The position numbers and the translations under genes are program-made. Under the pieces are notes generated by a model. The model was not told where the DNA came from, made no database searches, and saw nothing but the letters and a program-made list of their open reading frames with translations. DNA of 64,000 bases from Antedon mediterranea (Eukaryota; Animalia; Echinodermata), in contig NC_092671.1 in the NCBI RefSeq assembly GCF_964355755.1, positions 5,766,001 to 5,830,000 on the forward strand, written 5' to 3'. Each line of letters opens with the position of its first letter. Position 1 is the first letter of the stretch. Positions 7,498 to 63,842 of this stretch are shown here, piece after piece.

Positions 7498-10400
7498 CAA
7501 TTCGAAATTATAGAGTAGGCCTACTACTGTGGCAATCAATCAATGTCTTGATGAATTTACAATTTCAATAAATACTGTGAAGAAATCAAGGTTATTTTTA
7601 ACCATGGACACAATGTTATCAAACACGAAGGTCCAATCAATTAATTGTGCGTGTCTTTAAGATAAATAACTTGATTAAAAAATAAGTTAATTAAAAAAAA
7701 TGTAGTGTAAAGTACACGTACACACAAAAGAAGCTACCAACGTGTGTATTGTGTGTAAATTAGTTGTGAAGAGAAGGCAAACGCTACATTTCATCTAGGC
7801 ATGACCAATTTCATTTCTGGGTTTAAATTAATATCTCTTGATTAAATTAATTCATTTTTGATGAGCAAACCCCAAAACAAGCTCAATCAAGTTGTACACT
7901 CAATGGGTTTATGGTCTGGTTGCCTGATAGATCCATAAATAACAAAAAACACCGCTCATCTCACAATAACTACCGTACTGTCTACAGGCATCTCAATATT
8001 CATAGCCTCTTTTTTCCCAGACGTGCTTTGGGGTGTGCGCATGTCCAGTCCGGGTTTTCAGATTATAAGTTACCGCATGGTAACTGCTTTATAATGTTTC
8101 CATTCTCTTTAAAATAACTTCCTAAAGGAGTGGCGCGAAACGTCACGCCACCGCACAATGTCATCCCGCTGTTGTCTGTGTAGGCTAACACTAGTAACTG
8201 TTGCATGTCAACAAAATCTGCCGATGATTGAACCTGAAATCTTCATACCTTGATCATGCTATCTATAAATTTTACCGAAGGTTTACAATTTCATTTCAGA
8301 TAAAGTTATGAATTTATGACAGGAGTGATATATTGAATTGCAATCGGATGATGCTCCTTTTATCCACATCGAACGTTAAACTTACGATGTTGGAATTTGT
8401 CTATGGATCTCTTTGCCTATAATATTAAGATTACGAGATTACATGACATTACTATCTTAAGATTCCGATGAAGTCTCAACGGTGATTATCCTGATGTTAG
8501 GTGTAAAACATTTGTCAAAGTGTTATTTCCCGTTGATCCTAATCCGCGAACCAAATAAGGCATGTTCCCGTTGCCTCGGTACCTCGCCGTAATATAATAT
8601 AATGAATAATAATAATAATATACTGAAGTGTGTTGGAATAAAAATAATTCCAACAAACTATATAAGATAAAATACGATCTTTCGTCAATTTCTACAAAAA
8701 ATGCCAGTTAAAGAAACGTGCGCGCGTAAAATCAGTTTGCGTTTTAGTTAAAGTTACGTGAAACCCTATTTTAAGGAATACCTTTTCGATCCAACGATGT
8801 TCCCCTTTAATACAGTAGAGATGTACCGGAATATAGGTTGGCTTAGTGATCTGTATATTTCTTCTCGTTTTACTGATATAGGGATGTCGCCCTTTCTTTA
8901 GATTGCCAAGTTAATTTTGATAATCTGTTTTTTACAGGACCGAATTGCGATTCGTCAAATGGGAAAAAGGTAGATGGATTCAGCTGTGGTGATGGACAAT
9001 GCATATGGAAAAGCTTGGTAATAATCTACTTATAACTACTGCTAGTATAAGATATATCGATAAGGATCGAAGAAAACTTAATAGTACAGTAGATGAATTT
9101 ACTACACGCTGTAAAGTCATCTACTTACGTTAAGTAACTCTGTAGAGTCAGTATTGATTAGTTTTCAGTTTCAGTCTTTTTTATAAAGATAGGTGTCTAT
9201 TTCAATACAGTTTAAGCTTAAATTTAGTTTTTATTGGTTTTGTTATGATACTGTACAGCAACGCAACTGTTGTTTTCCTAAACACGTTTAAAACTGTGTT
9301 TTTTCAGCAACCACGCGATGGAGAACAAGACTGTTGTAATAGATGACTATTTCAATACAGTTTAAGCTTAAATTTAGTTTTTATTGGCTTTGTTATGATA
9401 CAGCAACGCAACTGTTGTTTTCCTAAACAAGTGTAATACTGTGTTTTTTCAGCAATGCGATGGACAACAAGACTGTTTTAATCGATTTGATGAAGAAGAC
9501 ACGTTATGCGGTGTTGATACGTACGTTTGTAAAGAAGACGAGTTTGATTGCGGAGACGGCTCTTGCATCAGTGCCTCCAAAAGATGTAACAATAAAAGAG
9601 AATGTAAAAATGGGGATGATGAGAAAAATTGTGACGATATGTATTGTAAGTCGACTATTTAATGTTATCTATCGATTGAATATTGTTAATTCGGTCCAAC
9701 AATTTGTAGGTTAATTATCCAATAATTTAATCCGAATGATTTATTAACTTTATTATTATAGCTTTGAAAACAAGATCGTCATTAGTACGGTGTCGCATGA
9801 CATACAATGTAAACACATACCGTATTCAGTACAGCTGTGTTTAAAGAATAAATACTATTTAGTCTCATTGCTCTAAATTCAGATCCGTTAAGTATAAAAA
9901 AACAAACATCTCTGTGTATAGTGGTATTGGTACACATTTCTTGATAAAACTGTAGGCCGACATTTAATCATCTTTAATGAATACGGGTCCAAACGATGTA
10001 TACAGCCAAGCTTAACGTTGTTATTGTTTAATATTATTTTACCATTTCAGTAATCCGACCAAATTGTGACGAGACCAATGGTAAACCTGTCAATGGAATC
10101 GATTGCGGTGACGGTCAATGTATATTAACAAACCAGGTTAGATAAGCAACATAAGCCTATAAATACGTTTGTTTATGATATTTATGATTTGTTTTATACA
10201 AAGAACACCATCTTTTTAAATGAGGGACTAACTAAAAAAACAGTATACTCACAGTAGCACAGCACAGTAGTATAGTTGAAATACGTACAATATACGAATA
10301 AATCCGAATGAAGATCCGAGTGAATATCCGAATGTAGACGTAACAACGAGCATAACGTATATTAGTTTCTTCTTACATTCTCTTCTCCTATCATTTTTGC

Positions 10401-11446
10401 TGTGTAACGATGTTTTTGTTTATGATTTACATTTGTTTATATACTCAAGACCACCATCTTTTTAAATGAGAGATTAACTAAAAAAAATATTAGTAGTAGT
10501 AGTAGTACTCACAGTAGAACTGTTGCATAGTTTAAATGCGAATATATCCGAATGAATATCCGAATGAATATCCGAATGAATATCCGAATGAATATCCGAA
10601 TGAATATCCGAATGTTGACGTCGTAACAACGACCTGTTGAAACTGCAACAAGAAAGTGCTGCGCAAAGGTATATTGGTTTCTTTAGCTTACTTTCTCTTC
10701 TCCTATCATTTTAGCTGTGTAACGATGTTCAGGATTGTTTTAACCGGATGGACGAATCATCTTCGACCTGCCCTGACAAGTTTGCAAATCTTTGTACTAA
10801 AACAGAATTTCAATGTGGTGATTCTAAGCAGTGCGTACCGTTAACAGACAGATGCGACGGGAATAAAGATTGTAGAAATAACGCTGATGAATACAAGTGC
10901 TCCAACAAAAAATCGTGTGGTAAAGGCAAAATTGACTGTGGCGATGGTGTTTGTTACAAACTAGATAAAGTAAGTTATCCCTTAACAAGCGTGACTTACA
11001 AGCGATGGATTATCTGAATTTCGCTTGTGATTGGTCAACTTGCCTGAGTTGCGCTTACGTTCTTGCGTTGCGAACTAGTGGGAACCAAGCTTTAGGACGC
11101 AAGGTCGTAAGCGCAACAAAAACGTGTTGATCAATGACAAAGTGAGTTCGGATAATATATTGCTTGTGATTGGCCAATTACTTGCGTTACGTAGCAACCA
11201 AAAGATAGTTTCCATCGCAAGGACTAGGGGTAACGCAAATAATTTGACATGTCACAAAATAAATCACATCTGCACAAATTTAAATAGTGAAAACTAATGA
11301 CCCCAACTATCACGGATTTTCTCATCTTTATTGTTTCATATTATTTATTGTAATAATTGTAATTTTCTGTCTCTCCATAGTTATGCGATGGTCGACAAGA
11401 TTGTTTCAACAACTCAGATGAAAAACATTGCACACCAAATGTATAA
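2999..11446 (+). CDS. Secreted LDL-receptor class A repeat protein (5 LDLa modules, no TM), ~249 aa, 6 exons
   Basis: Exons 2999-3068, 8938-9017, 9453-9645, 10051-10136, 10715-10969, 11381-11446. All introns are GT-AG, phases are compatible and the total is 750 nt. Signal peptide MKIQITLACLLAVVVYCSG, then five LDLa modules, e.g. CKEDEFDCGDGSCISASKRCNNKRECKNGDDEKNC and CTKTEFQCGDSKQCVPLTDRCDGNKDCRNNADEYKC. Stop after ...EKHCTPNV. The exon 1 link is the least certain part. Confidence 0.85.
7435..7493. repeat. (TA)n microsatellite
   Basis: Uninterrupted TA run of ~29 units. Confidence 0.98.
10540..10613. repeat. 12-bp tandem repeat (GAATATCCGAAT)n
   Basis: About 6 copies; shorter related array at ~10296-10333 in the duplicated intron segment. 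Confidence 0.9.
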
Positions 11447-16718: not shown

Positions 16719-16780
<62 letters not shown>

Positions 16781-16925
16781 ATGATGTTGCGTAGCACTGT
16801 GTAAATTATATATAAATCATACTGTAAATTATAGAAACAGTGCTCATATTCGGAACATGATCTCATAATCGCGTCGAGCATAGCTCATTGGCGAAAGTTC
16901 CATATTTTTTAGTTGTATGAAAAAA

Positions 16926-16997
16926 TGTCTCTGGCGGGATTCGAACCTGCAACCTCTCGCTTACAGGGCGAGTATCATACCACTAGACCACAGAGCC
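16926..16997 (-). tRNA. tRNA-like unit, copy 1 (identical to 17868-17939)
   Basis: Reverse complement of the unit at 17868-17939, inside repeat unit 1. Confidence 0.65.
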
Positions 16998-17292
16998 ATG
17001 TATGGTATTATCACAGATTTTCACCCACCAGATACATTCTCTCATACAACAAACGCCCTCACAATCAGTGGAGGCTTAACAAGTCAGAATAAATTCCAAC
17101 TTTAATTCGCAACGGTTTTTTAAATAATATTTTGTATATGTAAATCAATGATGTTGCGTAGCACTGTGTAAATTATATATAAATCATACTGTAAATTATA
17201 GAAACAGTGCTCATATTCGGAACATGATCTCATAATCGCGTCGAGCATAGCTCATTGGCGAAAGTTCCATATTTTTTAGTTGTATGAAAAAA

Positions 17293-17364
17293 TGTCTCTG
17301 GCGGGATTCGAACCTGCAACCTCTCGCTTACAGGGCGAGTATCATACCACTAGACCACAGAGCC
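17293..17364 (-). tRNA. tRNA-like unit, copy 2
   Basis: Identical copy in repeat unit 2. Confidence 0.65.
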
Positions 17365-17659
17365 ATGTATGGTATTATCACAGATTTTCACCCACCAGAT
17401 ACATTCTCTCATACAACAAACGCCCTCACAATCAGTGGAGGCTTAACAAGTCAGAATAAATTCCAACTTTAATTCGCAACGGTTTTTTAAATAATATTTT
17501 GTATATGTAAATCAATGATGTTGCGTAGCACTGTGTAAATTATATATAAATCATACTGTAAATTATAGAAACAGTGCTCATATTCGGAACATGATCTCAT
17601 AATCGCGTCGAGCATAGCTCATTGGCGAAAGTTCCATATTTTTTAGTTGTATGAAAAAA

Positions 17660-17731
17660 TGTCTCTGGCGGGATTCGAACCTGCAACCTCTCGCTTACAG
17701 GGCGAGTATCATACCACTAGACCACAGAGCC
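17660..17731 (-). tRNA. tRNA-like unit, copy 3
   Basis: Identical copy in repeat unit 3, in the left arm of the palindrome. Confidence 0.65.
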
Positions 17732-17867
17732 ATGTATGGTATTATCACAGATTTTCACCCACCAGATACATTCTCTCATACAACAAACGCCCTCACAATA
17801 TTGTGAGGGCGTTTGTTGTATGAGAGAATGTATCTGGTGGGTGAAAATCTGTGATAATACCATACAT

Positions 17868-17939
17868 GGCTCTGTGGTCTAGTGGTATGATACTCGCCCT
17901 GTAAGCGAGAGGTTGCAGGTTCGAATCCCGCCAGAGACA
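17868..17939 (+). tRNA. tRNA-like Pol III unit (tRNA-Pro-like body, TGT at anticodon position); probably pseudogene or element-borne
   Basis: GGCTCTGTGGTCTAGTGGTATGATACTCGCCCTGTAAGCGAGAGGTTGCAGGTTCGAATCCCGCCAGAGACA then T6. A box TGGTCTAGTGG, B box GGTTCGAATCC, anticodon stem CTCGC/GCGAG. One mismatch each in the acceptor and T stems; C rather than U at position 33. Confidence 0.7.
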
Positions 17940-18047
17940 TTTTTTCATACAACTAAAAAATATGGAACTTTCGCCAATGAGCTATGCTCGACGCGATTAT
18001 GAGATCATGTTCCGAATATGAGCACTGTTTCTATAATTTACAGTATG

Positions 18048-18087
<40 letters not shown>

Positions 18088-18534: not shown

Positions 18535-21500
18535 TTACGTAGATCCATAGATAAACAGAAGAGTGCTAGCAAAACCTGTTCCGGCTTCTAGTCGGGCGCT
18601 ATATATAGATTTCATATAGTTTATTGCTTCCAACTTGGATATATTGTCAATTTGTGAGGTTATTGCGTAGCAAAATACTGCCCATTGTGTTGAAACTGGT
18701 TCTAGTGTATATAGTGATAAGTCTATGAGATTAGCGCCTGGTGCCGTCGTCGGATTTATAGCCCAACTGCAAACGTCTTCTATATTCCGCGCCCATTCCT
18801 AATAAAATAAAACACATTGTGTGCATCTACCATTTTCGATACATATTTTAATATGTCGCGAAAATGGTAGAAAATAATGGTAAAAATCAGTAACATTAAA
18901 ATGTTGGTGTTTTATGCGTGCAACTTAAGTACCGTATAATATACGACTAAAGCTTGGTTGCTTCCCACTTCACGCAACGTATGCGCCACAAGCGATGGTG
19001 GATTATCAGCCTGAACTGTCGCTTGTGATTGGTAAACTTATTTGCGTTTCGCTTACGCCATTGTGTTGCGTCTAAGTTGGAACGAAGCTTAAAGAGTCGC
19101 TTCAACCCTTTTTTAACAGTTAATTTACCTGATCCATATAATGTTTTGACACGGATGTGATTGGCAAAATTTGAAGTCCAACTATACATGCATGTCGTTC
19201 TGGAAATTGGTCTGGGTTACAAGGCCAGCTTAGTGTATAATAGAAAATTCCATCCTCTTGCATCTGCCCTAGTACTCCAAAGTTTTGAATAATTGGCGGG
19301 AAAATATGTTTGTTGTGCGCTCTAACGTGCCAATATTCCCTCGTTGATCTGATTTCGGTAGCTAACATCAGACGGCCTATATTTTGCATTGTTACGTCAC
19401 CAAGAGCGTGCCCGAGCGCCGCCACTGCGTGGTAACAGTTAATTGCCTAAAGAATAAATCAATGACGGTCAAACACCATGCGTTTTAGCGGTGTTTTTGA
19501 CAACCAATATTAGAGACCTTTCGATTTGGGACGACTACTAGAACCATGGTTGCATCATGTTCATGCATTTGGGGACATAGGGGTCTGCTTTATCGCTCGA
19601 TTCCTCGAAATGGTTCTATGGAGTAATTCATTTTACGCGATTTTAATCTTTTTTAAAAGAATGGCACTTTGTCGAATTCTTTTGACTTCTAATTTAGACA
19701 AGCATCGGTTCTATGGTGTAATGGTTAGCACTCCTACTACTAAGTCCAGGCAAAAACAAACAACAATACATTGTGCGCTAGACTTGCCCTAAGTCTGTAA
19801 TGTTGTCTTTTTTATGTTAGCCGGCATGTTTAGTTTTGTTTCAAGTCAAGCGTATACGTATGAAACGTATTTTTACTAATATTAAGTAAAAAAACTAACT
19901 AATTGTGCGCTGGCAGCTGCATCCCCGTCGTCGCAAATCGAAAGTTTCCATTTTACTTTACGGGATGGATTTATCATCATTTGTAAGTGTCGCCGTGCAT
20001 GATCAAAATTTCTAAATAATCTAAAGAATAAATAAAAATGATGAGGATCTTACTTCACTGGTTGATTCTGTAAGCCGTGTACCCCCTCCAATCCCCGTTG
20101 CCCAAGAATGACCCATGTACCAATCTTTATGGCGTACGGTTGGGAAGAATGTGTCATTTTTACTGGGATTTGCAACATCACGAACAATTGCTGTAATTCG
20201 TTCATACGTATCTAAAATAATAAAAGATAACTTTTTAAATATTTACAAAATTGATACAGTATATTATTCTTGCATTGTATGTATTGTTTAAAAAATACAT
20301 AGCGCCGCCTATCAGTGAGTTGTAATGTATTGCTACATGAGGGCAGTATAGAAAGAATCCTAAAGTTGATCCTCGTTTTTAAGAGCTGCAGTTTAGTCTA
20401 TAAACATGGAGGAAAAAATCACATGGTTTTACGTACATAATCCACTTATTAGGTTGAACGGACATTAGAAAGTTCCCGCTAAATCACCACTCAACATTTC
20501 AAATATGGCTACACAGATTCTTCTTACGGAAAATAAATCACATTTATATACTGTATAATATATATAGAAATCCACCGAACTAACCATTTCGTGCTGCCCA
20601 TTCCATGTGGTGCTTTGCATAGTAAGCTATACCATAGATCCAATACCCAAGATGAATATGATGGTTTGAATAAGAGACAAATCCAAAATTGGTCCAGTAA
20701 TAAATTGGTTCATATTTTCTATTGCTATACAGGAACATACCTCCCCAAATAGAATCGTACCTGATTAAAAAGCATATCATATATCAACCATACCATACAG
20801 TAATATTAACGGGACACCTTCGGGACCCAAAAGTGTCTTGGTTGGTTGTAGTGTGTTAAAACATGCCCTATATTTGCCTCATTCATGTCTGGGAAGTCCC
20901 GTTAATAGAGGGATGTCCCTGTTTCTCAAAGAAGGTGTTCTACTGTAAATGTTTTATAAGCATAAATTTAAAATATATACCATATTATGCCTATATGTAA
21001 TATGTCATAAAAGTGAAAAGTGTTTTGGAATGACTCGTATGTCTGTAGGACTGCGTTTAGGACCTAATTGGCAGAATGTCGTACCTAAATACGTTTGCTT
21101 CAGTTATTCCTTCAACTATACCAAGCCAGAGATCTAAGCACCGACGTAATGATTCATCTAGCTTAGTATAATGATTTGTCCCAAATGCCCTGGATATGCT
21201 GGCTAATCTTGATACCATTCCAATGGATTTACCAGCCCAGTAACTTTGAGCGCCCTCGCGCTTGCAGTCTTTATCAAGTGTGTGATTGGCGGCGTCCCTT
21301 GCAATTCCATCTATGATATCCTAATCGATTAAAAACAATTTAAATTGGAATAAAGCTTTGTAAATACATTATTTAGAATAGAACACAGCTAGTTTATTAT
21401 AAAGCACGATACGCTCGCTTAGGTTTACTTATGTGGTTTTTACTTGGCTCTTGTGCTTTGAGTTAAACATCATTATTTTTGTGGGACGATACAACCAGAC

Positions 21501-24500
21501 ATAATAATTAGACCGTTTTTTCTTATCATTTACTGTACTTAGAAAGATATTCGATTGCACACATTTTGCGGACAGTTGTTTTTATTGGGAATTCATCTAA
21601 ATCTTTACATTAAGCATAAAAACGGAATAATTTTCAATTAAAAATGAAATTAATTCCTCGGAGAAAATAAATATATTGTAAAGACAAAGAAGATAAAGTA
21701 ATATATTTTGTAACCCACACATAATTTCTTACCTGTAGCATTGTTGAATTTTCTTTTATTTTCTTGACCTCTTGTGGATCTGGGTCCATTTCAGCACGAA
21801 CCAGTGGCTCTTCCATTACCCATAGGTCTGATGTATAACCTTTGAACCCAAATATTGTTGGTATCAATGCGTCTTTTTCGAGTAAGACTTCCTTTGAAAT
21901 AACATTGTTAGAATAGAATTTGGACATTTTATAAAAGTTTTAGACCACAAAATTTATAGTATTCATAGAAATGTTGACTGATTTACAATTGTTACCTTAA
22001 TGTCTGTCTATGGAAATAGTATTTTTTCCATCCCATTTATCCATCACCACTTTACTACAAGTTACAACAACATTATTCAACTTATTCCTCAAGCTTTCAC
22101 CACCATAATTACCCAACACTACCAACAAACATTATTCGACTTATCCCTCAAGCTTTCACCACCATATTACCCAACACTACCAACAAACATTATTCGACTT
22201 ATTCCTCAAGCTTTCACCACCATATTACCCAACACTACCAATAAACATTATTCGACTTATCCCTCAAGCTTTCACCACCATATTACACAACACTACCAAC
22301 AAACATTATTCGACTTATCCCTCAAGCTTTCACCACCATATTACCCAACACTACCAACAAACATTATTCAACACTGCATTAAATCTATTCCACCACACAT
22401 TTGGAACATTTGTGATTCATCAGAATTTTGAGGACAGTTAATACAAAATGGATATTAGAAGCATTTATAAATCAAATATGAAATTGTTAGAGATTAGAAT
22501 AATTTTTATGAACCTTTATTTAATTTATTAGATGGATATCTTTGTTGTTTTTGTTTGCTTTTATATTTAATTTTTTATTTGATTATGTTTGTCCTTTGTA
22601 ATGTATTATTATGATGAAATTTAAAAAAATATGTGATTCGTATCTTCAGTGAAGAGTGAAATTAAATAACTTTCTGTAATTTCACTGTTCCCTGGTATCT
22701 TGTTTATCAACTTGAAAACAATGTATAAACTTATAAACAGTTAAGGAAAAAATGGAAAAATCAGCACTGTGGTCAAAACAATATAGATTATCTGATAAAA
22801 CTCCTAGAAAGTAGGAAGCATTGTGCCTTTTTCCCCTGACTATAAACCTACATGATGCGGTAGTGTAACGATCAGCAGCTGCGGTTCCTGTCTGTTTTGT
22901 AAATACTGGAAAACATGCGTATTCCAATCCCAACTTATGTATCCTGTATCACCGAGAACACAGGTTCGAGTCCTAGGCTTGTAAGAATATATTCCAACGT
23001 GATGTTCAAGCTGTTTAACTGCTTCGAAGTCACCTTTCTTGCCTGTACCGGCAAAAGCTAATTGCATGATGCCTGTAAAGTTTTCAGATTTAGAATTGAA
23101 AAACGCTTTCCCGCCTTTTATAGTCATCGTCATTTTTTCTGAAAAAAAGGCTGCAAACTTTCTAGTGTTTAGTTTAGGGTCGCCTAATGGTTCAGCTAAT
23201 TCTAATATAAACGAATTGCTGCTTATTTCCAATGGCGGCTCTTGAGAAGAATTTCTGCTACTTTCACAAACAACCTGTAAATAAAAACGAAGTAATAGTC
23301 AATTCTTGAGCCTTAAGTTTTATTCTCAATTATATTTCATAGGTCCATGTTATCACAAAGGTCACTGTTGAAGATGGACATTCAGAGAGTCAATATAGTT
23401 TTTTCCATAAAATTGAGTTGAGTCAAATACCGTACCTCAAATGGAGATCTCTTCCAATTAAAAGGAATAGGCTGGACAACATATTGACCTATAACATTAA
23501 CAGCATAGACATGTGTATTAGTAGACACGGTGGCCGTGTATGTAACTCTCCTTCTATCGTATGATAACTGACATGTATTTTTGGTACACTTTTCCCATAT
23601 TCTTTTGTTATGCCATTCACTTTTATTTCCATGGAGGAACTGGATCTGTAAAATAATTATATATTTTAATATAACGCATTGAAAACATACATACTATTAT
23701 TCGGTAGATGTCGATTTAAAAATAAAGCCATATTCTCCAGTAACTAAATAAATCTTCACTGTGTATATGACTCATTTCCACATTGTGTCAATTTTTTATA
23801 ATAAATAAACACTTGAATACATGTGCTTCTTTTAACATAACAAGAATTAAATATATTTGTAAGTTCTTTGAAATTTGCATTAAATTATATTTTAAAATAG
23901 AAAAACTTAGTCATTCAATCCTATTGAAGTGTCACATTTTTTAATTTTTAAAAAGGTGTGAACTAAACATTTGAAATTTGTATTATTAAACCTTTTATCA
24001 ATCACCATTTAAGTCAAAGTTTTAATTCACAAGGGATTAAACAGTAATCTTATGATATATCAATATTCAGACATAACGACTTATTACTAATAAATGTTAT
24101 CAATGATAAGTGGTACCGAAAGATGTTGTTATAAGGGATAATTATGTATGATATTAAGCTCTGTCTATGTGACAACAAAAAAGGCATGTGCCCAAATAAT
24201 AATGGTAGCGATATGCTCAAATATGGCAGTGATATGACATCATGGCACATCACATTTTGTTGTCACATAAAGTTTGATAGTGTAGACAAGGCTTTATATA
24301 GAAGATCTCCTTGTTTATAAGTAGGCAGTATATATGACACTTTCATTACATTTGACAGATGTATAGTATCATAACCCCACACTCTGATGACTAGCAATGC
24401 AATGAACTCAGTTTAAATAATTTATCAGCCTGAGTCCTAAAGTCTATTTTACTTATGGAAAAAACACACCTCTTCCAATCCACCAAAAACGTTTTTTGAT

Positions 24501-27500
24501 GTGACGTTTATCTCAAGTGTGGTTCTACCACAACTCGCAGATACTGATGCACTTCCGTAGAACCAATTATTCGGCATCCGAGTTCCAATATTCAATTGTC
24601 TTTCAGTTTTATTGTCACATGTCACGTGCATTGGGTTCGTAATCCAGTAGCCATAATAATCGTTGCTAGGAATCATATAGCGATCAAGAACATTAATGGA
24701 ATATACCATGTTTCCACCATTATAGTTCGGAATGGCCATCTCCACCATCATCTTGTCATCTGACAATTTGCATATAGCATTGTTGCAGGTTATCATTTCA
24801 GCGTCTGTGTACCACCTGTATTTAAGTTTAAAAATACACTTGTAACATACTTAAAAGGAAGTTCACATAATTGTAATTCTTCAGTACATTTCCTCTTGTA
24901 TTAGACTTAATTCAAAGAAAACAACTTCATAAAAAGTGGAGAACAATATCTCACTCAGCCATTTCCACTACTGCGGTACGTTCAATATATTATTGTACTG
25001 CAGTACCGTACTTACATATCAATTCGCGACGCTCCCCATTGTACATCGGTAACTTCTTCAATCGGTTTTGTCATGTGAAGTGTCAAGTAGAGAGTTTCTT
25101 CAGCACTGCTACAATAGGCTTCTACAAATCCAGATCCCGTATCCTCACCTAAAAATGTCCAATTGGTGAATAAAGAAAATATAAAAAGCATTTGAATTTT
25201 GCGGAAAGTATATATCCTAATCCACAAAACTGTGTACCAAATGTGTAATGACGTCATAGTTTCCCTAGGTTACAGGATACTGAGCTCGCCTTGCCAAGAT
25301 AGGAACTCGAGACAGTCTTATGTATATGGCTGCGACAAATACCAACAGTAAGCTACTGTACTATGTACATACTCTGCGCGGTGTATGTTAAGGGCGTGAA
25401 ACAGATCGTGTCGCAGCCACAGATAAACCCTTTAATCTTCGGAGCTCGGCATCCTGTTAGATTGTCTTGGGTCGAGACACATCGATTATTAGGCAGGAAC
25501 GTTACTAACACTAATATTCACAAAACTTATAATTTGCAAGACTCTTACTTGACTCTTCTTCTGGGCAACCAAGTGATACATCTTGACCATTAACGGCAAC
25601 CAGACAATGTGGTGTTAGAATGGGATTAGCTTGTGTGAATATGTGCGTCAACATTGCTGCTCCTCTAACCAAAGGAAGCTCTAGTGTTCCACCGTCAGAA
25701 GAAGTGTACAGAAAATTAGCATACATTTCTTCAAATGATGTCATTTCCGGATGATTTGTGTTGGCAATTCCAACTTGAACACCAGACAAGCCTACAGTAA
25801 TTGATAAACAAAGTTCGTCCTAATTTTCCCTTAACATTTTACATTGATTGTGCATTTAAAAGCTAGCGAACTGTTATGGACTAAACTAATAAATAGATGT
25901 TTTAATCGTGGATAATTATAATACAATTAATTATAATGTAATCAATTGTTTTTTATTTTTAAAAAATAAATAGCTTTTTTGTACCTGTAAATTTGCTAAA
26001 AGGATTGCTATCTGGACCGGAGACCATCTGTTTCATTCCTGTACCAAGGGAGTCTAACTTTATCCAGGGGTTATCTTTCTTTCCCGGTGTAAGTTGATGG
26101 AATGTATCACTCCGCGTACTCGCATTCCATCTTTCTAACGTGTATGCATCGTATGTTATACCGTCCTCATTCATAATAGCTATATATGTCAAAAAGTAAT
26201 CCCCAAATAAATTATGCCCATGTAAATTGATTACATTTTTATGAACGGAAATTGATGAATGTAAATGTCAAATTATTTAAGCATAAAGTCACAGTAATGT
26301 ATTACTGGATGCTGGTACTATCATCTCTATCAGGCACAAATAGAGAGATTTAAGTAGTCTCTATTACTTTAGATATTTCCATTACATATTTTATCATTCT
26401 ACCTATCATTGCCGACCATCATACTCGTACATAATTATCATTCAATCTCTATGCATGATATGTACTAACAAAGCATAGCTAATTATTACAGAATTACCTG
26501 AATAGGGTATTAAGCGTATAGGAGCTGGGTTATTATGAATTGCATTGCTAGCAAAATGTCCAGTTGGTAGGGCTCCCTCAGACCTTAATGTACCAGTGTG
26601 TAATGGAGGAGCGATCCTTTCCAGTATCGAACTTGTTCCAAATATCTCAGATACATCTTCTGTAGATAATGGCTTATCGTGAAGAGTATTACATGCTAGA
26701 GGTAAGCCACCTGATCCTAGAAAAAGATATATCCAAAATCATTAAAGAAAAAAAATATAAAATAAATTTCATTCAGATCTTAGTAGTTAGTCTGTCTTTC
26801 CATTTCAATATCTGGAAGTAACACCGGTTCATTGGAATTAAAAATAATTAGTTTCCTGCATATTGCGTCATACGTTACTTACAGCTAATCAAAAACCCTG
26901 ATAAAAAAGTGGGCGTGTAATGTTACCAATATCTATAACGTCAGTTCTTGCAATAATTGGCTCAATTATTTACAACATAATATACACACAAAAGTGTATT
27001 CATTAATTAAAGCTTTAATGTATTTAAATGATAGAACCGGCCGGATTATAGTTGCATATTCGTTTATTATGCCACTTGCATTTTAAATTAACAGGAATTG
27101 TCACACAAAGAATTTAATCATTTGTGTCCATCAGGAATTATAAATGAAACTACTATAAATATTTAAAAACGCCACAAATTAAATAATTTGCCTGATCGGT
27201 TCGATAAATCTTGTTGGAGACGCTTCCATTTAGGGCCTATACATATTGAATGAATTAAGTACTACAGTAGAATTCCTATACAAGAGACACTTGGACAGGG
27301 GTTCCCGTTTACACGGGAAGTACCGGCATGGTGTCCCCTAAATAGAGGTGTCAGATTGAAGGGATTCTGGTGCAATTTTTTTTTCAAATTGTTTTTCTTT
27401 CTTTTTTCGTATTTATACGGTGTTTGGTTATTTGTTAATATCACGAACTTGTATAAAAACAATCAATTGAACAAGTTGTACTGTGCATCAGTCTCGTGCC

Positions 27501-30500
27501 TAGTAAAGTTTATATATTATTCGCAGGTAAACCGAGAATTTAATGTGTGAACAAATAATTTAAAGGCAGGTTATTTGGTATGCAGTAGCTTGCTTGCTAC
27601 AAAATATAACCTGTCTTGATGAAGATAAACCCGTTAGTTCTATCATCTTAATCCTAAAAAATAACCAAAAGTAATGCACTCGGATAGCGTGGGTAGATTT
27701 ATAGTGATCAGTTTTTCCAATTAATTTTTATGACTACAGTTGTAATAATTAATTTTAGCAAGTTTGGTAAAAATCCATTTATTTAAAGCGATAATAAAAA
27801 TAAGAGAATAAGAATTATTTTTGGAGGACAAACATTAATAAACGCTTCCACTTTTCTCTTTATAAATTTAAATATTTAGAGTAAATTTAGCTCATGTCAA
27901 AGTTTATGATCAATAGTTGTCAAGTTATTTTTTTAAATCAAACTATGAATCTGTAACATCTAATCTAAATCCATACATAATGTTAAATATATTAGCAATA
28001 AGACTATACGGGTTTGTTAGCACACCTTAATTGCAGAGCTATATACTGAAAGAGAAGAAGAGATAAATAGTATAATTGATATGCAATAGTTATAAGCCTC
28101 TAGCGAAGCTTACTGTCGAATCCCACATTTTCCAAATTTGCTTGCAGCGTTTATTATAGGTTACATCACTACAAGTGACAGATATGACATTATTTTCTGG
28201 ATTGAATGATTCAGGCCAACGAGGTCAGCAAATAATATACAAATTCCTACATTGGGTACATATACATTACAATTATATATAATATTAACAATAATAAATA
28301 TATCTCATATTAATAGCACCTAATTTTCCAGTTTAATCTTCTGTAGGCCTAATGAAAGTTACCTGCGCATGCCCGTAAACATTTTTCTTTAGTTATAAAG
28401 TTGTTTCTATTTCCTTTACAACCTTTGTAAGTAAACTTTCTGCATGTGTTTCCGTCGAAACTCCATCGTTGATGTGTTTTGTGGCAATCTCCAACTTTAA
28501 TAGGTAATAAACACAGGTCTTCTACAAAATAAAAATAGTTTTTATGAAAATTATATTCTATTTTTCCATTAATTTATTATTATTTTATCCATTTATTATA
28601 AAGACAAAGATCATCCACACATTGGTTAGCGACGTCTATCAAAACTTGTCCTGTATAAATCTGTTCAATTATAAATTTTAGAAACGCTCTAGTTTTAAAA
28701 CTATTTGGATCTGCTTAGGAACCTGTTAATTTGAGTACATCGACGCCATTTAGGCTTTAGGAATTACGGAACAACTTGGATAGATAATTCTATGTAAGTA
28801 CTCGTAAGCCCATATAAAAACATCTCTTTTTGTACAGTTTAGACAGCTGACATAAACCAGGAGTAGTATATGTTTCATTAAATATTACTATGAATCCATA
28901 TACACTTAAAAATGTTAAGGAAATTAGGTTAAGGTTAGCCAGCCCAGAATACCAATTATCGTCCTTTTCGCAATTGGAATAGACACGCAGACTAAAGCTC
29001 TGCCCATGGTCATGATGGTGTCATATCACTACGATATTTTTGCATATCACTTCCATATTTGGCACATCACACTTTTCTTGTCAAACTAGTTTGATAATAT
29101 AGACAGAGCTTAAGGCCTATATATTAAACATGCCATGACGTTATAACTATATAATGGAACATTAATGCTTCATCGATTAGTTTAATAATTTCTCATTTTA
29201 AATCAATTTACCTGTCTGAACAGTGATTAAGATTGATATACAGATTACAAATTTGACTCGACCCTTATCAATAAATTAGCCATCGATAAAGATAGGTTTG
29301 TTGATTCATGTTGACAACATGACACGGTAATAAACTCTTTATTAATATATTCACATATCTAAATAATTAACTGTGTTTAATATTAACATTGTATATATTA
29401 TGTATTGACATATTAACATGTTTAATGCAGCAGAATGTGCACCATGATGGCTTCCATTTCCCAAAAGCAATTACAGCTTTTTACATAATAACTCTTTATT
29501 AGTCCTAATCATTTCTCAAGATATTTTTCATTGTTTTTTCTTCTTTTACAGGATCCTCAGTAAAGTCTTAATTATATTATGTATATTATTGTTAATTTGC
29601 CATTATTGAAACAAATAAATGTTCTTAAATTGAAAAATGATTTTTTCTTTCTCGTGAACAAAGTTGCATCAACATCAAGTTTTATCTTTAACTTTTTAGA
29701 TCACACAAAACGACAAACATTGTCATCACTCTGATTTACTGGTGTCATAATTGCTCGTTTGTTGCCGTCTTATAACAATATATAAAGAACTGAAATGTAT
29801 AGTCTAGTTTTAAAGGCATAGAATTGTTTCATGTGGTATTGTATCTTTTTATTTTGTTAATTATACGTATAATTATCTCGTTAGTCCTATTATTATGTAA
29901 CGATGAGAAGCAAGTATGCGAAGAATGATACATAAAATCATTATTTTATGAACTATTTTGATCTTTTTTTGCACCATAATAGGTATTTCTACACTTATAA
30001 TAATGAGACTGTCTTCAAACTCACTTTCATAATAAAATTATACTATTAATGTTATGATATTTTCTGGATCAAATAAATCGACTTGTGACTTGTGTCTGGC
30101 AATAAAAATGATAATAACGATGTAATGTGTTTAATCAGGTAAGATAAAAAGAAGAGATATCTTTATTATAGACCTAAATAACATTAAATCCTGATGCTAA
30201 TTTGATATGGGTCACTAAAACTTTTGTAGCAATCTTTAAACACACGTGACCATTAATATCAGTAACACCGCGCTGTTTTAAAGGAGCATGTCATATTCTA
30301 CCTATACGACAGCTATAGTAAATTTTAAGTAATCTTATAAAGTTTTACTAAATGCAATTTAATTATAGGATATTATGGACCACCTACCTTTATGTTATAT
30401 TATTATATCATCTACAATTATGATGAAACTGAATATTTTATGTTGTTTAATGTACAGCCTAATAATAGCATAACTTAGAATAGAATAACGGGTATATAAA

Positions 30501-32922
30501 AATTAAAGTACATCATTCGTTTCAGTTACCGCGTGATTTTATTGGATAATGTTCTACTAAAAGACAATAATAAGTTACTTCTTACTTTATTGTTCTCTGA
30601 CTGTATGTACACTTCTATAAATGCATGTCATAATTATTGAATGATTATTTATAGTGATCCAGTTGAGATATAAAATCATGTTATGTTTTTTTTTTAACTT
30701 TACGACACTTGAAGTCCATGGTGCGGGCACAATTCTATTGATCATACATTCTAATAATTATTATCGATCTATATCGATTTGTGTACAAGAGTTCATAATT
30801 TTCGGGATTGTTATTGTGACATAATGATTTTGTTGAAAATACAGTAATCATTTTCTTATCATCTACACAGTAAAATCCCTAAAATCCTATTCTCTTCTAC
30901 ATAAATGTTTAAACAATTAAGAAAAATAAACGGTGTGGTACCAATTAGGGTTAATATCCTAGTGATTATTCATTATGATTTAAATTATATACAAAAATAA
31001 TAGGTTAAACTTTTAATTCTCTATATGGGAATTGTACGGCAGTATAATAACCATGTGATGCCTTTGGGAAATATGACTTTGGTAACAGAGGACAAGTTAA
31101 AACAAGTATTATGACAGTCAAAGCATACCGGTAATGAAAAATTCGTCCATTTTATTTGATAATAATGTACCGTAAATTTTTTTAACACTTAAAGATGTAT
31201 TGTCCCCTGAAGAAATATTTTTTTTGTTGAATATGTCATTTTAATGTCACATAATAATAATAATTTGACCAAAAATGGGATCAGAAAAAAAAATGATTTA
31301 CCTAAAAAAACTGTAATTTAAAGCAAAAAAAATAGTCAAATTGGCTGCCAGTCATGATGGGATTTTGGTTGAATGTAACTATAGTTTTTGTCGGTTTTTT
31401 TCTATGGAAGTGATTAACTTTATAAAATCTACAAAATGACCTATTGAAAGTAAGAATTTTTATTAATGTTCATTTGTCATGGTTTTTTGGGAGCAATACA
31501 TCTTTAAGATATTATCGGAATTGATGTCCTTATGAATATAGGAATACTCTACTAACTTTCATAATCTACCAGTAGGCCTATGTAAATTTAATTATACCAC
31601 TGAAGTTTTAACCTATATTATTATTGCCAAAACGTTTAAGAGAGGAAATGTGGTAGTTTTTAGAAGAACTATGCTTTTATAGAAAACTATAATATCTCAT
31701 AGCATGGAGTACTTTAAACATTTATGATCCTGCAGTGGGATAAAATATTGGCTTCGATGAAACACTATTTTTAATTCATCTTTGTTTATTTTTTAACAAA
31801 TCTTCTTTTCCAATCTTCTGAATTATGTGTGTTTAGCCTAGCAAGCAATCGTTACACAGCTTCTATACCATTTACTATTAATGAGTATACAACATTAGTA
31901 GATACATTACCGACATTAACATATATGCCTACAAATGGCTTATACTGTAGTTCATCACTCTGTATTATGCATCATCTAACATGTGAATATTTCATACCAT
32001 TTAAATCAGACAGTATATAAATCATATTACCTTATTTGACGATAAAAGCTTTTAGTGTGTTCTGCGCATGCGCTTTGATACACGGCCGTCAACACTGTCA
32101 ATAATTTTTAACTCATTCATTCACAATTGCCTTCGTTTCTATTCTTCTGGGTATTTTCGATTCATAAATTGTTACATAAATATAAATGTTTTCTTATTTA
32201 TCTTTTAGTTTGATCTAAATCTTACTTAAATGCTTACCTTTGAATTACTTTCATTAATTAAGAAGCAAAAAGTGACGTTTGATGGATTTGCTTTCATTAT
32301 GCTATATTAAATATTATGATTTCTAATATAAATATATGACAATAATATCATTATTTAATCATAGTTTAAATAACATTTTCAAAATTTAATTTCATAATCA
32401 TTTATGTTTGTATTAAACAGTATAAAATTTAATTATTTTTCATCTAGAATATATATTAATATACCGGTAGGTATACATTAAATTAAGAAATGAGAATTGT
32501 TCAATAGGTATCATGAACCTCCACCTTATTGTATTCATAATTTATACTGTTTTACTTCTTAATTGCCTTTTAAAATTAGACAGATAGTTGCTATCAATAA
32601 CCATAGAACGTAATAATGTTTATTATGATGACATAATTACTTTAGGAATATCTTATTTTATTAATGTAACATTACACAAATACTTACCTTCCTTGTTAAT
32701 ATATTCTTCTCCCAAGTTTTTTATTTTATGATCTAAGAAAATGGTGTACAACGCAGCAACGATACCACCAATAATCAACAAGACAGTCGCGATGACAAAC
32801 ACACAGCAAGTAGTTGTCTTAGGCGTTGGTTCTTTCTTAGATGGCACTACTGAGGTTGAAAGACTTTCGTTTAATTGTTCTTTTAACTCCACATCTACAA
32901 GATCACATTTACTGTTTGCCAT
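18535..32922 (-). CDS. Type II membrane Kunitz-domain / glycoside hydrolase family 81 (endo-beta-1,3-glucanase-like) fusion protein, ~1157 aa, 15 exons
   Basis: Exons (minus): 32922-32688, 28521-28363, 26716-26498, 26179-25985, 25791-25549, 25148-25016, 24815-24470, 23645-23436, 23274-22852, 21891-21733, 21320-21085, 20760-20585, 20211-20054, 19446-19129, 18798-18535. All GT-AG, open through 3474 nt. GH81 motifs in order: LPTGHFASN..PIRLIPY, LPLVRG, TLPHH, SYWAGKS, RYDSIWGG, NFG..YSNHHIHLGY, RDVANPS.NDTFFP..RHKDWYMGHSWATG, ESTSEAIN, GLQILPIT. TM helix VFVIATVLLIIGGIVAALYTIFL in exon 1. Confidence 0.88.
19512..19950. mobile_element. MITE-like element with ~22-bp imperfect TIRs carrying a 5' tRNA-Gln fragment
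   Basis: Left GAGACCTTTCGATTTGGGACGAC vs right GTCGTCGCAAATCGAAAGTTTCC. Internal GGTTCTATGGTGTAATGGTTAGCACTC (19707-19733) matches the 5' 27 nt of eukaryotic tRNA-Gln. Lies in a GH81 intron. Confidence 0.55.
22062..22372. repeat. ~58-bp minisatellite, ~5 copies, intronic
   Basis: Unit ACATTATTCGACTTATCCCTCAAGCTTTCACCACCATATTACCCAACACTACCAACAA repeated head-to-tail without unique spacers. Confidence 0.95.
25280..25470 (+). repeat. Dispersed ~200-bp repeat, second copy at ~46813-47015
   Basis: Shared TGAGCTCGCCTT..AAGATAGGAACTCG...GGCTGCGACAAATACCAAC...CAGCCACAGATAA...GAGCTC..ATCCTGTT..GATTG. Confidence 0.75.
28363..28521 (-). CDS. Kunitz/BPTI domain exon (phase 1-1) of the GH81 fusion gene; absent from the ORF track
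   Basis: Translates EDLCLLPIKVGDCHKTHQRWSFDGNTCRKFTYKGCKGNRNNFITKEKCLRACA: six Cys in Kunitz spacing with F.Y.GC.GN.NNF. Flanked by acceptor ttttgtAG and donor GTaact. Confidence 0.9.
31189..31507. mobile_element. MITE with TTAA target duplication (Kolobok/piggyBac-type target)
   Basis: TTAA-AGATGTATTGTCCC ... GGGAGCAATACATCT-TTAA. Confidence 0.75.
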
Positions 32923-48100: not shown

Positions 48101-51100
48101 AGTAAAACGTATGGATTCACCTCTGGGACCAGGAAAATGAGGCCTAGGCCTATCACGTCATATTATTATTTATTATAATTAAAATACTGTTCGACTGCGA
48201 CTTTGATTTTCTGATTAGTTGACCGTGTCAAGAAAATTAAATAATGAAATTCGACTATTCAAATTATGTGAGCCTAAACATAGATTGCATTTATATTAAG
48301 TTGATCTGGGGATATATTCCAGTTATGTTCTTATATTTTAGATATATAGGCACATAATTATGTTTAATGGGTATCGCCCGGTAGACTATACGTCGTTTAA
48401 AGTTAGTAATTGGTTCATTATACATAGACCTACATATAGGCAGGTTCGTTTAATCACTCGTAACACTTCAATCCATTTGTTATATTGACTATTATTATGT
48501 AAACTTAATTACCGCAGAATGATATATTTACGAAATAAAATGAAATATTTAGGCGCTGCATACCTAAGAAATGGTCCTTTTTTAAAGTATTTCCAATGAT
48601 TTATTATATTGCTTGTAAATATTGTTAGTTTCGTTAGTTACTATGTTTACTTGTTTTCCAACATATTCTTTTGTTTCTGAACCTTACCGCCACTGATTCA
48701 AAGTTCAATAAATGGTCAACAAATACAAAGGTCAATAAATGGTCAACAAATAAATTAAAAGTAATGATATGTCATGTTCATTCTTTATTCAACAATTTAA
48801 TTATTTAAATTTTCTGCATTTTTGTAATTTTTTAAATACACACACGAAATGTCAATAAATCATTTTTTTTACATAATACGTATACCTACATGGACTCTTT
48901 TTTTAAAGTGTGTCTTTTTAATAATTAGCTTGTAGTGTCGGAACAAAAGATGGTGCATTATCTTGTGAAATAGACGGACAACCGACGTGTGTTGAGGCCG
49001 TACAGGTAAGAACTTAGGGGAATTTATTAGATGGTAGTTATGCCTAGCAGGGAGTTGTACAATGTTTTACAACTCCCTGGACGCGATATTTCTTTTCGTA
49101 CCCCTCATGAAACGTCACAAAATAAACATGAATATCCATTAGTCACGTAAGAATTAAGCTAACTACAATTCACTTCTCTTCCTATCGAGCCGTCTGTAGT
49201 CGAGTGAATTCGACTATGGACTTAGTATGTCGATGTATGGGGGGTAGAATTCCATGAGCAACTTCTTTTTACTTTATAGTGAGAGAGAGATTATTTAGAA
49301 GGTTAGGTTTAGTTGTTTAGGAAGTAGTTTGACCATCTTTCACTTAAGGGGTCTCCAACTTATGTACGAAAAATAACATCGCTTTCTGGGATTACTAGTC
49401 AGGGTGCCTATATGTCACATATTGCTACACATCTCCTCCGTTGTGTTTTGACGATAAATATTAAATGTTTCCTATCCTATTTTAACACACTATCAATGTA
49501 CTTTGCAATACTATTAATTACCCATTATCCCATTTACTATCAATCAATCGGGCGCGCCCGAACCCTTGCTCAAAGCTCTCCACGTGTCCCTGTCTGTCGT
49601 AGCTCTTCCATTGTGAGATCTGTGTCATTTTCCAACTGGGTGACATCATCATCTTCCTGCCTCTCGGTGTCCATGATTGGGCTTCCGTTTACATTAAAAC
49701 GTATACAATTATTACAATTCTGATTACCTGGGCTTATATTATAAAATGCCAATTAAACAACTGTGATAATATCTAAAGTCTATAGGCCTACATTCCCCAC
49801 GGGAACAAAATCCTAGTTTAATGCGTTGCTTATGTGATGGGTTTTTGACCATCAGGTTGATTAATTGGTTATTAATTACAAAGTGCATTAGCTATGATTG
49901 TAAACATACTGTTAATTTTTGCACATCATCATGCCAGCTTAACACTATTGACTTGAAAATACATCGAGTTCTGAGAAGACAGAACACTGCAGATTCCCCT
50001 TCCACTACTTTGCTTACCTTACGCCTAAGTTTATTCACAAACGTTGGCATTCAAAATGTGTCCGTTAATTTGCTATCCTGTATAGGCCTACTGATTTTCC
50101 TACAAAATGTCAATGACATTTGTAGAAATTGGGAGGTTTAGTTACTATATTTATTTGCCGTTAGTATACATTTTATTTATTTTTACTTGTAAGATTTGTG
50201 ATGGAAGGCGCCATTGTGACTCTGGTATAGATGAACATAACTGCGAAAAAGACAAGTTCGTGTCTACATTAGCTAGAAGGAAAAGAATGCAACAAGCATC
50301 AAAAACTAGTAAGACTCAACAGTTTTTGTTTCGATACAAGTGCAAATCTGCGTGTACTTGTTTTCATTCTGATAATATTGTTGTGATATTAAGGTCCATT
50401 TACACTAAGGCGATATCGATAAATAGATAAATAAGGATTTTTTCATACCTGAAACAAAAGAAATTAAAACAGTTTTCATTCTAGAACTGTAGGATAATCA
50501 TCTATGCTGCCTTATAATAATAAATATAAATAATACAATTTTCACCCGCCCAATCAAATGACGTCATGATTAGTAAGACCAATAATATCATTCATAATCA
50601 TATCATCATCGATTTTATTATTTTTTATTGATCATGACGTCATTTGATTAGATTTTTTTTAATATAATTTTTATCAAAGACCGCATAAATGATTATCCTA
50701 TAGTTCTAGAACAAAAGTCTTTCTAATTTCTTTTTTTAATAGTATCTTTTTTTTTCTAGTATCAATATCCTAACTGCTATTACCAGGGAAGAGTGAATTT
50801 CTTCCCTGATATTACTAACTACAGTACGATATTTTTACTGGTCTTTAAATGAGTTATGTTTATGATTTCATCAAACCAGGTGGCCAATAAAGCGGAGGGC
50901 GCTAGAGTAAGCTAAAAAATGAAATACAAAGACGAATTTGAATTGATGTTTTTTTTGTATTTTTTTTTTTATTTTACAGGGGATCTATCAATAATTGAAA
51001 AAAAGAAGAGTTACGAGATACCTTGTCATCCTAATTTTAACAAATATTGTTGGAATGGAGGAAACTGTTTTTACATTGACAACCCTAAAAAACGTTTCTG

Positions 51101-60800: not shown

Positions 60801-61856
60801 GACTGCATACAGTGTATTTGTCAAGATGGCTCTATGACATGCGTTCACACCTGCTTTCAATCATCGGATGTGGTTGGCCAAAATGTGACGCTGTCCACAG
60901 TTTCACGTAAGTTATAATATTGGCATCTTAGTACATGTACTTAAGCAACCACTCTTCCCTTTCACCCGCCCAACCAAATTCTCACCACTAGGATTATTCC
61001 AGCTATTCTTGTGTTCTCACAATACGATAAGTTAGTCTGGATTCCAGACGGAGTTTTTACTTAATATTAGTAAAAAGATATTTTTATTATTATGGCACAT
61101 TTAAAAAGACAATGTAGACTTGGGGCAAGTCTATATACGTAAGTGTTTCTCACGCAAATGATTTGATCCCACGTGTACGCAACGCAAAGAACGTAAGAGC
61201 ACCGGGAGCAATTTGACCAATAATGATGCGATGATCATCCTAACTGATGCTTGTGATTGGCCAACTCACTTGCGTTGCGCCTACGTCGTTGCGTTGCGTA
61301 CTAATGATAATCATCCTTTGTGCCGATGTCTTAGGTCTAAAACAAATCAACAAGTAAATAGAGGCCTATATCGTTTTCAAATTTGAGTACTGTTTCTAAA
61401 AATTAATTTTCTTATATTATTTTAGCCACATTGAGAGTTCAGGTGACGGCCACTGACGTACTAAACCCACCTCCTGTATACCCAAGAGATGTAAACATAA
61501 TCAAAGTAAACATCAGAATACAGTTCAACAACGAATTAAGTACTAACATTTTGGGGGCAGATCTCTGGAGTCTGCAAGTATGGGGAAGCTTGAAGGCCAA
61601 CGGAGGAGGGCCTAAATTAAGCTACTCAACAAATGCACTGAGAATGGCACAACGGTCACAGGACTTGATATTAGATCAACCATTTGTGTTCACGGACGTT
61701 ATTGTGGTGTTAGATATGTCGGATAAAACATGCAAACAGCTGAAATTTGTATGTGTGATGTTTGAGAAATCAGAAAACCCTCCTTTTGAGTTTGAGTTCA
61801 ACAAGACCCATTCGAAGGCAAATGTGAAATGCCAACGTCTGACATGTATCAGATAA
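54804..61856 (+). CDS. Large secreted protein (~1251 aa, 12 exons): 5 copies of an uncharacterised ~140-aa Cys-containing domain, two Gly-rich linkers, VWC plus partial VWC modules
   Basis: Exons 54804-54870, 55538-55960, 56300-56447, 56565-56848, 57168-58091, 58378-58821, 59163-59401, 59513-59729, 59968-60168, 60411-60620, 60739-60906, 61426-61856. All GT-AG, 3756 nt open. Signal peptide MKNRIILCILVIFINESTA. Repeat consensus LW..(..)GS....G.G...L...Q...C....(F/Y)(L/I/V)C(V/I/L)EF.K...P.P.F...C....C. VWC: CQTCQC...C...C...C...CCATC. Confidence 0.85.
57362..57640 (+). repeat. (GGT)n-based coding microsatellite (poly-Gly)
   Basis: GGT/GGC/AGT triplets within exon 5 of gene 4. Confidence 0.95.

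Positions 61857-63192: not shown

Positions 63193-63842
<650 letters not shown>

Follow-up and report, generated by a model that had tools for sequence, protein, structure and literature searches.

In the β-1,3-glucan recognition proteins βGRP, GNBP and LGBP, a soluble glucanase fold of glycoside hydrolase family 16 (GH16) that has lost its catalytic residues acts, together with a CBM39 module, as a glucan binder. Sucrase-isomaltase and maltase-glucoamylase represent type II glycosidases of the brush border, composed of a short tail, a signal anchor, a stalk, a small disulfide module and the glycosidase. Family 81 (GH81) members listed as characterised in 2022 were derived from bacteria, fungi and soybean, with no animal in the relevant section of that source (PMC9609564), and endo-β-1,3-glucanases of marine molluscs have, in the section concerned, mostly been assigned to GH16 (PMC8949617). 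Here, a GH81 gene was analysed on the minus strand of a 64-kb stretch of contig NC_092671.1 of the crinoid Antedon mediterranea (the window, to which all coordinates refer). The gene contains an intact open reading frame (ORF) encoding, in this order, an N-terminal membrane anchor, a Kunitz domain and a GH81 part into which two Ig/FN3-like repeats are inserted; it belongs to an animal GH81 clade, shares its anchor with echinoderms at large and carries four rare changes at the active site. The reading preferred here, which we regard as evenly poised, is that it represents the crinoid member of an old animal clade stemming from a gut-surface laminarinase, and that the Antedon copy is an inactive or impaired enzyme that has been retained as a β-1,3-glucan binder tethered to the membrane.

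The gene model comprises 15 exons, running from position 32922 to 18535, which are joined across 14 GT-AG introns into 1158 codons with a single terminal stop, corresponding to a protein of 1157 amino acids (aa). The rebuilt translation was identical to protein P0001, i.e. RefSeq XP_071940914.1, an 'uncharacterized protein' of A. mediterranea whose record is itself a gene prediction, and thereby bore out the in-frame joining of 15 exons proposed in the preliminary description of this DNA. The same 1157-aa protein was retrieved by a protein search with exon 14 alone, and poly(A)-signal-like hexamers are located downstream of exon 15, at ~18251 and ~18212. An alternative acceptor for exon 8, at 23488, breaks the frame and was rejected. 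The exons and the codon of principal interest are as follows:

32688..32922, minus strand: exon 1, aa 1-78; start codon, short predicted cytosolic tail, Cys39-Cys40 and signal-anchor helix at ~aa 38-62
28363..28521, minus strand: exon 2, aa 79-131; symmetric phase 1-1 exon encoding the Kunitz/BPTI domain with its six Cys, His92 being P1 and Lys93 P1'
26498..26716, minus strand: exon 3, aa 132-204; beginning of the GH81 N-terminal region, conserved across all animal orthologues
25985..26179, minus strand: exon 4, aa 205-269; GH81 N-terminal region
25549..25791, minus strand: exon 5, aa 270-350; Glyco_hydro_81 N-terminal β domain
25016..25148, minus strand: exon 6, aa 351-394; beginning of inserted β-sandwich repeat 1
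24470..24815, minus strand: exon 7, aa 395-510; remainder of repeat 1 and beginning of repeat 2
23436..23645, minus strand: exon 8, aa 511-580; remainder of inserted repeat 2
22852..23274, minus strand: exon 9, aa 581-721; GH81 N-terminal domain resuming after the insertion
21733..21891, minus strand: exon 10, aa 722-774; connection to the helical barrel
21085..21320, minus strand: exon 11, aa 775-852; catalytic (α/α)6 barrel
20585..20760, minus strand: exon 12, aa 853-911; barrel, containing the Asp motif
20664..20666, minus strand: Asn885 codon, in exon 12; the Ile888 codon is at 20655-20657, its residue being likewise unique
20054..20211, minus strand: exon 13, aa 912-964; barrel, with rare Leu958 and Thr959 and the retained catalytic pair Glu960 and Glu964
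19129..19446, minus strand: exon 14, aa 965-1070; barrel
18535..18798, minus strand: exon 15, aa 1071-1157 and stop; C-terminus conserved among animal orthologues

The same order of transmembrane (TM) helix, Kunitz domain and GH81 was observed, at ~50% identity, in proteins of Diadema, Lytechinus, Strongylocentrotus and Holothuria. In the Holothuria cluster, five of eight members are complete, at 1216 aa, and were predicted from assembled contigs 4152-7915 bases in length; as 1216 codons in 4152 bases leave scant space for introns, these proteins are likely to derive from spliced transcripts. Orthologue order and Holothuria contigs together provide good indirect grounds for assigning the anchor and Kunitz exons to the GH81 gene. 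A tblastn search revealed no further GH81 copy in the window, and word-limited protein searches, whose nulls carry little weight, returned no other GH81 protein of Antedon.

To compare the active site, 182 non-redundant GH81 rows were aligned (227 before removal of rows with at least 90% identity), of which 167 cover column 885. Asn885 sits before a His-His pair and aligns with chain residue 475 of RmLam81A, which is an Asp in GH81s and which we take to be the second catalytic carboxylate of the family. This column was occupied by Asp in 163 rows, His in two, Ala in one and Asn in one, the latter being found in Antedon only; the Ala row (P0074) appears to reflect a one-residue misalignment next to an Asp. 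Both glutamates of the ExxxE motif are retained, Glu960 aligning with the Ala of CtLam81A E515A (the mutant named in the title of PDB entry 6fop) and with chain residue 553 of RmLam81A, and Glu964 with residue 557, as are Tyr801, Lys805, His886/887/889, Arg938 and Trp948. Across 94 family-wide conserved columns, Antedon deviates at five (885, 888, 958, 959 and 1055) and the 23 other animal rows at zero to three, none of them at 885, 888, 958 or 959. Four of the five deviations are located within 3-5 residues of catalytic positions, a clustering with P values of 0.003-0.006, or 0.013-0.022 when position 885, the site that prompted the test, is dropped. Asp885Asn and the three nearby rare changes were missed in the preliminary description and are new here.

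In the crinoid Anneissia, represented by a 163-aa partial protein with 75% identity, Asp is present at 885 and Phe at 888 (958-959 being outside its coverage), which makes the Asn885 change younger than the split between Antedon and Anneissia. The other echinoderm orthologues with the Kunitz fusion all retain the catalytic set, indicating that the fusion and the loss of catalysis are not linked. For this species only, the Asp-to-Asn change would constitute the best argument for a non-catalytic glucan binder. Elsewhere in the family, the volvocine algal GH81s P0069, P0071 and P0217 include a domain in which His replaces the Asp and the second Glu is missing, whereas P0070 has neither Glu; these appear to be pseudoenzymes.

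Alternatively, the Antedon protein could be a working membrane glucanase, with Asn885 being a private allele or an assembly error, or with the two glutamates sufficing for activity, perhaps at an altered specificity. Glu960 and Glu964 are indeed retained, Asn885 is one base away from an Asp codon, the barrel identity to outgroups (0.51) is on a par with that of other echinoderms (0.47-0.52) and the barley GBP1 paper, in the part concerning its E500A mutant, stresses the first Glu as essential (bioRxiv 10.1101/2023.04.12.536646). Nevertheless, a single error would be insufficient for four separate rare changes, distributed over two exons and clustered at catalytic motifs, and Asp-Glu-Glu was found in 157 of 163 complete non-redundant sequences, so that this explanation is considered unlikely.

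Early decay in the Antedon lineage, in which the active-site changes would be the first losses under relaxed selection, was weighed by comparing the two crinoids. Over the 163 residues that they share, the two differ at 40 sites; other echinoderms agree with Anneissia at 23 of these and with Antedon at 10, the remaining seven being ties (P 0.035). This excess of changes on the Antedon branch would favour decay. Tajima tests between Antedon and Anneissia gave P values ranging from 0.001 to 1.0 over ten outgroups, with P <0.05 for five of the ten. Decay would also be in line with the lower identity of aa 596-770 to outgroups (0.38 in Antedon vs 0.41-0.46) and with the patchiness of the family, which the GH81 entries of PMC7560691 record as absent from three of seven molluscs. 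Conversely, if the excess were neutral and extended over the whole protein, ~6 stop codons would be predicted, vs none observed (P about 0.002, roughly extrapolated from 163 residues). In addition, the conserved-column changes are located at the active site and not at random, and the ORF and splice sites are intact. Among barrel columns conserved in 25 animal proteins, Antedon deviates at 8 of 101, Patiria at 7, Lingula at 9 and Strongylocentrotus at 12; the Antedon barrel falls inside this range and is therefore no overall outlier. Decay is for these reasons regarded as quite unlikely, although a very recent relaxation of selection may have occurred.

Pfam searches of P0001 to an E value of 0.1 returned only three families, i.e. 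Kunitz at 82-130 (E 6.9e-15), Glyco_hydro_81 (E 8.7e-08) and Glyco_hydro81C at 783-1075 (E 1.5e-48), with no GH16 and no CBM39; the two GH81 scores were 32.1 and 166.3 bits, respectively, vs a curated cut-off of 25.6. The sole hydrophobic stretch, at ~38-62, exhibits a mean hydropathy of 2.7-2.9 (next best elsewhere 1.03) and a net charge of +2 before the helix and -1 after it, which predicts an N-in (type II) orientation, the topology being based on hydropathy and charge counts. Of the features claimed previously, the short cytosolic tail with a Cys-Cys pair (Cys39-Cys40) beside a single TM helix holds as a sequence prediction, the Kunitz domain was confirmed by its Pfam match and six cysteines, and all ten named N-glycosylation sequon types are present, with 11 sites outside the membrane stretch. 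The 'complete GH81 fold' stood in part: the AlphaFold model (mean pLDDT 74) matched GH81 structures over the full fold (5xc2: TM-score 0.77 by target length, E 1.4e-25), Foldseek ranks 1-15 were all GH81 (TM-scores by target 0.62-0.77) and both the β domains and the (α/α)6 barrel are predicted, but the active-site Asp is Asn885 and ~235 residues (352-586) are inserted.

One internal N-terminal hydrophobic helix, with a lower net charge after than before it, was observed in all six full-length echinoderm proteins tested, and non-echinoderm proteins with complete starts mostly open in a signal-peptide-like manner, as judged by eye and hydropathy. This predicts a membrane anchor that is echinoderm-wide, whereas non-echinoderm copies look secreted. 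The cytosolic tails of the six echinoderm proteins range from ~32 to 91 residues, differ in sequence and share no evident motif, and Cys-Cys was found in Antedon only among them, which leaves signalling by the proposed sensor unsupported.

The insertion at residues 352-586 consists of two related repeats with 24% identity (E about 5e-6). Two such repeats were found in Lottia and Patiria and three in Glandiceps and Branchiostoma, and none in the four non-animal relatives tested. When folded alone, the inserts were predicted to form two β-sandwiches (pLDDT 83) with generic Ig/FN3-type structural matches (Z 7-9.5), the best being a domain of the chitinase ChiW (Z 9.5, rmsd 2.2, 87 aligned); the match to CBM56 (Z 7.8, rmsd 2.7, 81 aligned) was on a par with FN3 domains. 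The inserts had no Pfam match at cut-off and no Atlas match, and Foldseek returned only antibody Fabs (TM-score <0.3); such nulls are not proof of a new fold. That the inserts may grip glucan is put forward as a lead only.

The Kunitz domain was found in 5 of 34 near-length search matches, all of which are echinoderm or within an echinoderm cluster, and is distributed over crinoid, echinoids and holothurian, with two domains in Holothuria and none in the Patiria model. A phase 1-1 exon is the usual sign of exon shuffling, and such an exon could have been missed by annotation in Patiria. Canonical trypsin-type Kunitz inhibitors carry Lys or Arg at P1 and a small residue at P1'. When P1 and P1' are taken as the residues after the second cysteine, by BPTI numbering, the pair is His92-Lys93 in Antedon, which is thus not of the trypsin type, Gly-Glu in Lytechinus and Strongylocentrotus, and Glu-Ala and Asp-Gly in Holothuria; none of 12 Kunitz rows from 10 echinoderm proteins exhibits Lys or Arg at P1. 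Furthermore, three Diadema proteins lack the second (reactive-loop) cysteine. If the domain were a conserved brake on a cascade of the trypsin type, its reactive loop should have been retained; this is not the case, and such a brake is unlikely; a structural or shielding role appears more likely, and weak inhibition of some protease may occur.

These observations bear on the proposal that the protein acts as a surface β-glucan immune sensor, whose Kunitz domain restrains a serine-protease cascade until glucan binds. A surface anchor, a glucan-binding fold and a likely loss of catalysis would suit such a sensor, bacterial GH81 has been described, in the sections dealing with binding, to bind triple-helix-like glucan (PMC8949617, PMC7915573), a paralogue in the clam Mactra (P0026) carries CBM39, and the Antedon Kunitz domain retains all six cysteines. 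Against this, P1 and P1' are variable and non-trypsin-type, unlike the Arg-Gly of the closest solved human Kunitz (a HAI-1 domain), the loop cysteine or the entire domain is missing in Diadema and the Patiria model, respectively, the tails of ~32 to 91 residues have no evident common motif and the other fused echinoderm orthologues keep the catalytic set. The clade moreover appears to be mostly single-copy, unlike expanded immune receptor families. We consider this sensor highly improbable, and the 'protease control' of the preliminary description is not supported.

With regard to digestion, the GH81 entries of PMC7560691 give one copy in four of seven molluscs and none in three, with high expression in the hepatopancreas, and PMC11083476, where it treats digestive enzymes, places the GH81 of a potworm, which has homologues in earthworms, among the candidates for extracellular digestion. 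In urchin larvae, laminarin digestion was five times other glycosidase activities (PMC12079659); the pertinent passages of that paper track another gene, LOC373274, and do not mention 'family 81'. Taken together, the mollusc, potworm and urchin-larva papers, none of which concerns an echinoderm GH81, favour digestion. Of the earlier proposal of glucan recognition or digestion, the digestion half fits best; the immune and protease-control claim is the weakest part.

In the echinoderm lineage, the uncleaved N-terminal helix would tether the protein at the apical surface of digestive cells, the Kunitz domain would serve as a compact, disulfide-bonded stalk or shield, by analogy with the trefoil domain of sucrase-isomaltase, the two Ig/FN3-like inserts may aid the grip on polysaccharide and the barrel would cleave algal laminarin or chrysolaminarin. 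In Antedon, amidation of one acid/base partner would halt or sharply slow hydrolysis, with the cleft still binding glucan, which might then stay on the cell surface until it is taken up or other glucanases act on it. Several points weigh against this tethered binder: Asn885 is known from one assembly; no usable paper on the role of the catalytic Asp was found in the literature searched, a documented role being available only for Glu; glucan binding, and not only catalysis, could suffer from the substitutions at 888, 958 and 959; the faster Antedon branch relative to Anneissia would also fit decay; and the gut location is borrowed from molluscs, where the corresponding entries of PMC7560691 list oyster GH81 for male gonad as well. 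It is also conceivable, though rather unlikely, that Antedon harbours a pseudoenzyme receptor that captures or senses algal and fungal particles, as an independent repeat of the change from GH16 to βGRP, with an intact sister in Anneissia.

A near-length protein search yielded 34 matches, the first 28 of which had E <1e-114 and included echinoderms, Glandiceps, Branchiostoma, many molluscs and Owenia, the next best being 3e-38; the GH81s of Lingula, Lineus and Anneissia were obtained from further searches. The resulting animal GH81 clade spans echinoderms, a hemichordate, amphioxus, molluscs, a brachiopod and an annelid, with no named cnidarian, sponge, arthropod or vertebrate among the close matches, many of which are without a name. 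In a careful, unrooted barrel tree (32 rows, 303 columns; long rows P0036, P0070 and P0071 left out, most non-animal rows without taxonomy), ten animal rows formed one group (100/99) and four echinoderms another (100/100), with the echinoderm order unresolved; a quick tree of 46 rows gave crinoid, (asteroid, (holothurian, echinoids)). The nearest non-animal rows in the unrooted tree were P0073, which is a fragment, and P0074, which is labelled 'uncultured virus' and is encoded on a contig of 548 kb (100/99), and the filasterean Pigoraptor (P0082) joined the animal clade weakly (84/71). A search of viral_contigs revealed no viral relative of P0074, and of 76 loci kept from a metagenome scan, the best (L001) was 43% identical and intronless, the others being 24-35%.

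This pattern is consistent with a gene that was present in a bilaterian ancestor and has been lost patchily since. Contamination, which the preliminary description had argued against, and recent transfer were both rejected on the basis of the 14 spliceosomal introns, the animal neighbours and the placement in the animal clade. In Mactra antiquata, the second GH81 copy P0026 exhibits an N-terminal CBM39 (E 2.6e-23). CBM39 is the recognition module of βGRP/GNBP, and among GH81s an immune link would appear more plausible for P0026 than for the gene of the crinoid.

The animal neighbours cited earlier were recovered in part: LDLa exons are located at 9399-9659 and 10715-11014 (plus strand) and an exon at ~63700-63830 (plus strand) is presumably NABP/SOSS-B-like, by its motif, but no EGF exons were found among the 144 window ORFs of at least 58 aa that were scanned. 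A further LDLa-like ORF was noted by eye at ~50095-50430 (plus strand). At 55468-61853 (plus strand), a domain of ~150 aa without a Pfam match recurs in related form in five exons (E as low as 1e-16 in blastp between pairs). Among these lie a Gly-rich exon (57146-58105) and VWC exons (60383-60914), the latter counting as further animal neighbours, and the whole is suggestive of a large protein of secreted type that is built on an unnamed repeat. Just 3' of the GH81 gene, at 16768-18058, a 367-bp unit that contains a tRNA-Thr(TGT) is present in 2.8 tandem copies at 99%, and a fourth tRNA copy, in inverted orientation, results from a perfect palindrome of 518 bp (17541-18058), with flanking (TA)n runs; this represents either a real fold-back duplication or an assembly artefact. 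Intron 9 of the GH81 gene contains a 58-bp minisatellite (5.3 copies at 95%, 22065-22369).

In comparison with known systems, the Antedon protein resembles the GH81 endo-β-1,3-glucanases (RmLam81A, 4k35/5xc2; CtLam81A, 6fop; BhGH81, 5t4a; and the soybean and barley β-glucan-binding proteins) in its whole fold, both Pfam domains, both glutamates and the His-His motif, to which it adds a type II anchor, a Kunitz domain, two β-sandwich repeats and an Asn in place of the active-site Asp. The mollusc and annelid GH81 'endo-1,3(4)-β-glucanases', known as survey table entries, belong to the same clade, with 36-41% identity over nearly the full ectodomain and the same inserts, but look secreted, lack the Kunitz domain and keep the Asp. 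The closest counterparts are the echinoid and holothurian proteins XP_071488268.1, XP_041459073.1, XP_030856210.1 and KAJ8036269.1, which are orthologues by tree with the same architecture and ~50% identity; unlike Antedon, they have an intact catalytic set, with two Kunitz domains in Holothuria, and all are uncharacterised annotations. The earlier statement that no TM-Kunitz-GH81 protein has been described thus stands in so far as no paper was found, but the architecture is not unique. It is present in RefSeq/UniRef for several echinoderms, undescribed, and animal GH81 has already been printed as table entries; the literature searched, outside which most subscription journals fall, yielded no paper that deals with the anchored form of echinoderms, its fusion to a Kunitz domain, the inserted repeats or the Asn885 change of Antedon.

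Laminarin is a major carbon pool of the sea, making up as much as 50% of coastal particulate organic carbon (a figure cited in PMC12079659), and an overlooked, vertically inherited GH81 clade in marine bilaterians, membrane-tethered in echinoderms, would provide a second candidate laminarin route. If the reading of the Antedon copy as a tethered binder is true, the crinoids would supply a natural enzyme/pseudoenzyme pair inside one order. The layout is like that of the brush-border type II glycosidases, with GH81 and Kunitz in place of GH31 and trefoil, representing analogy and not homology. With respect to βGRP, GNBP and LGBP, the loss of catalysis would be the same kind of change, in a protein that contains neither GH16 nor CBM39.

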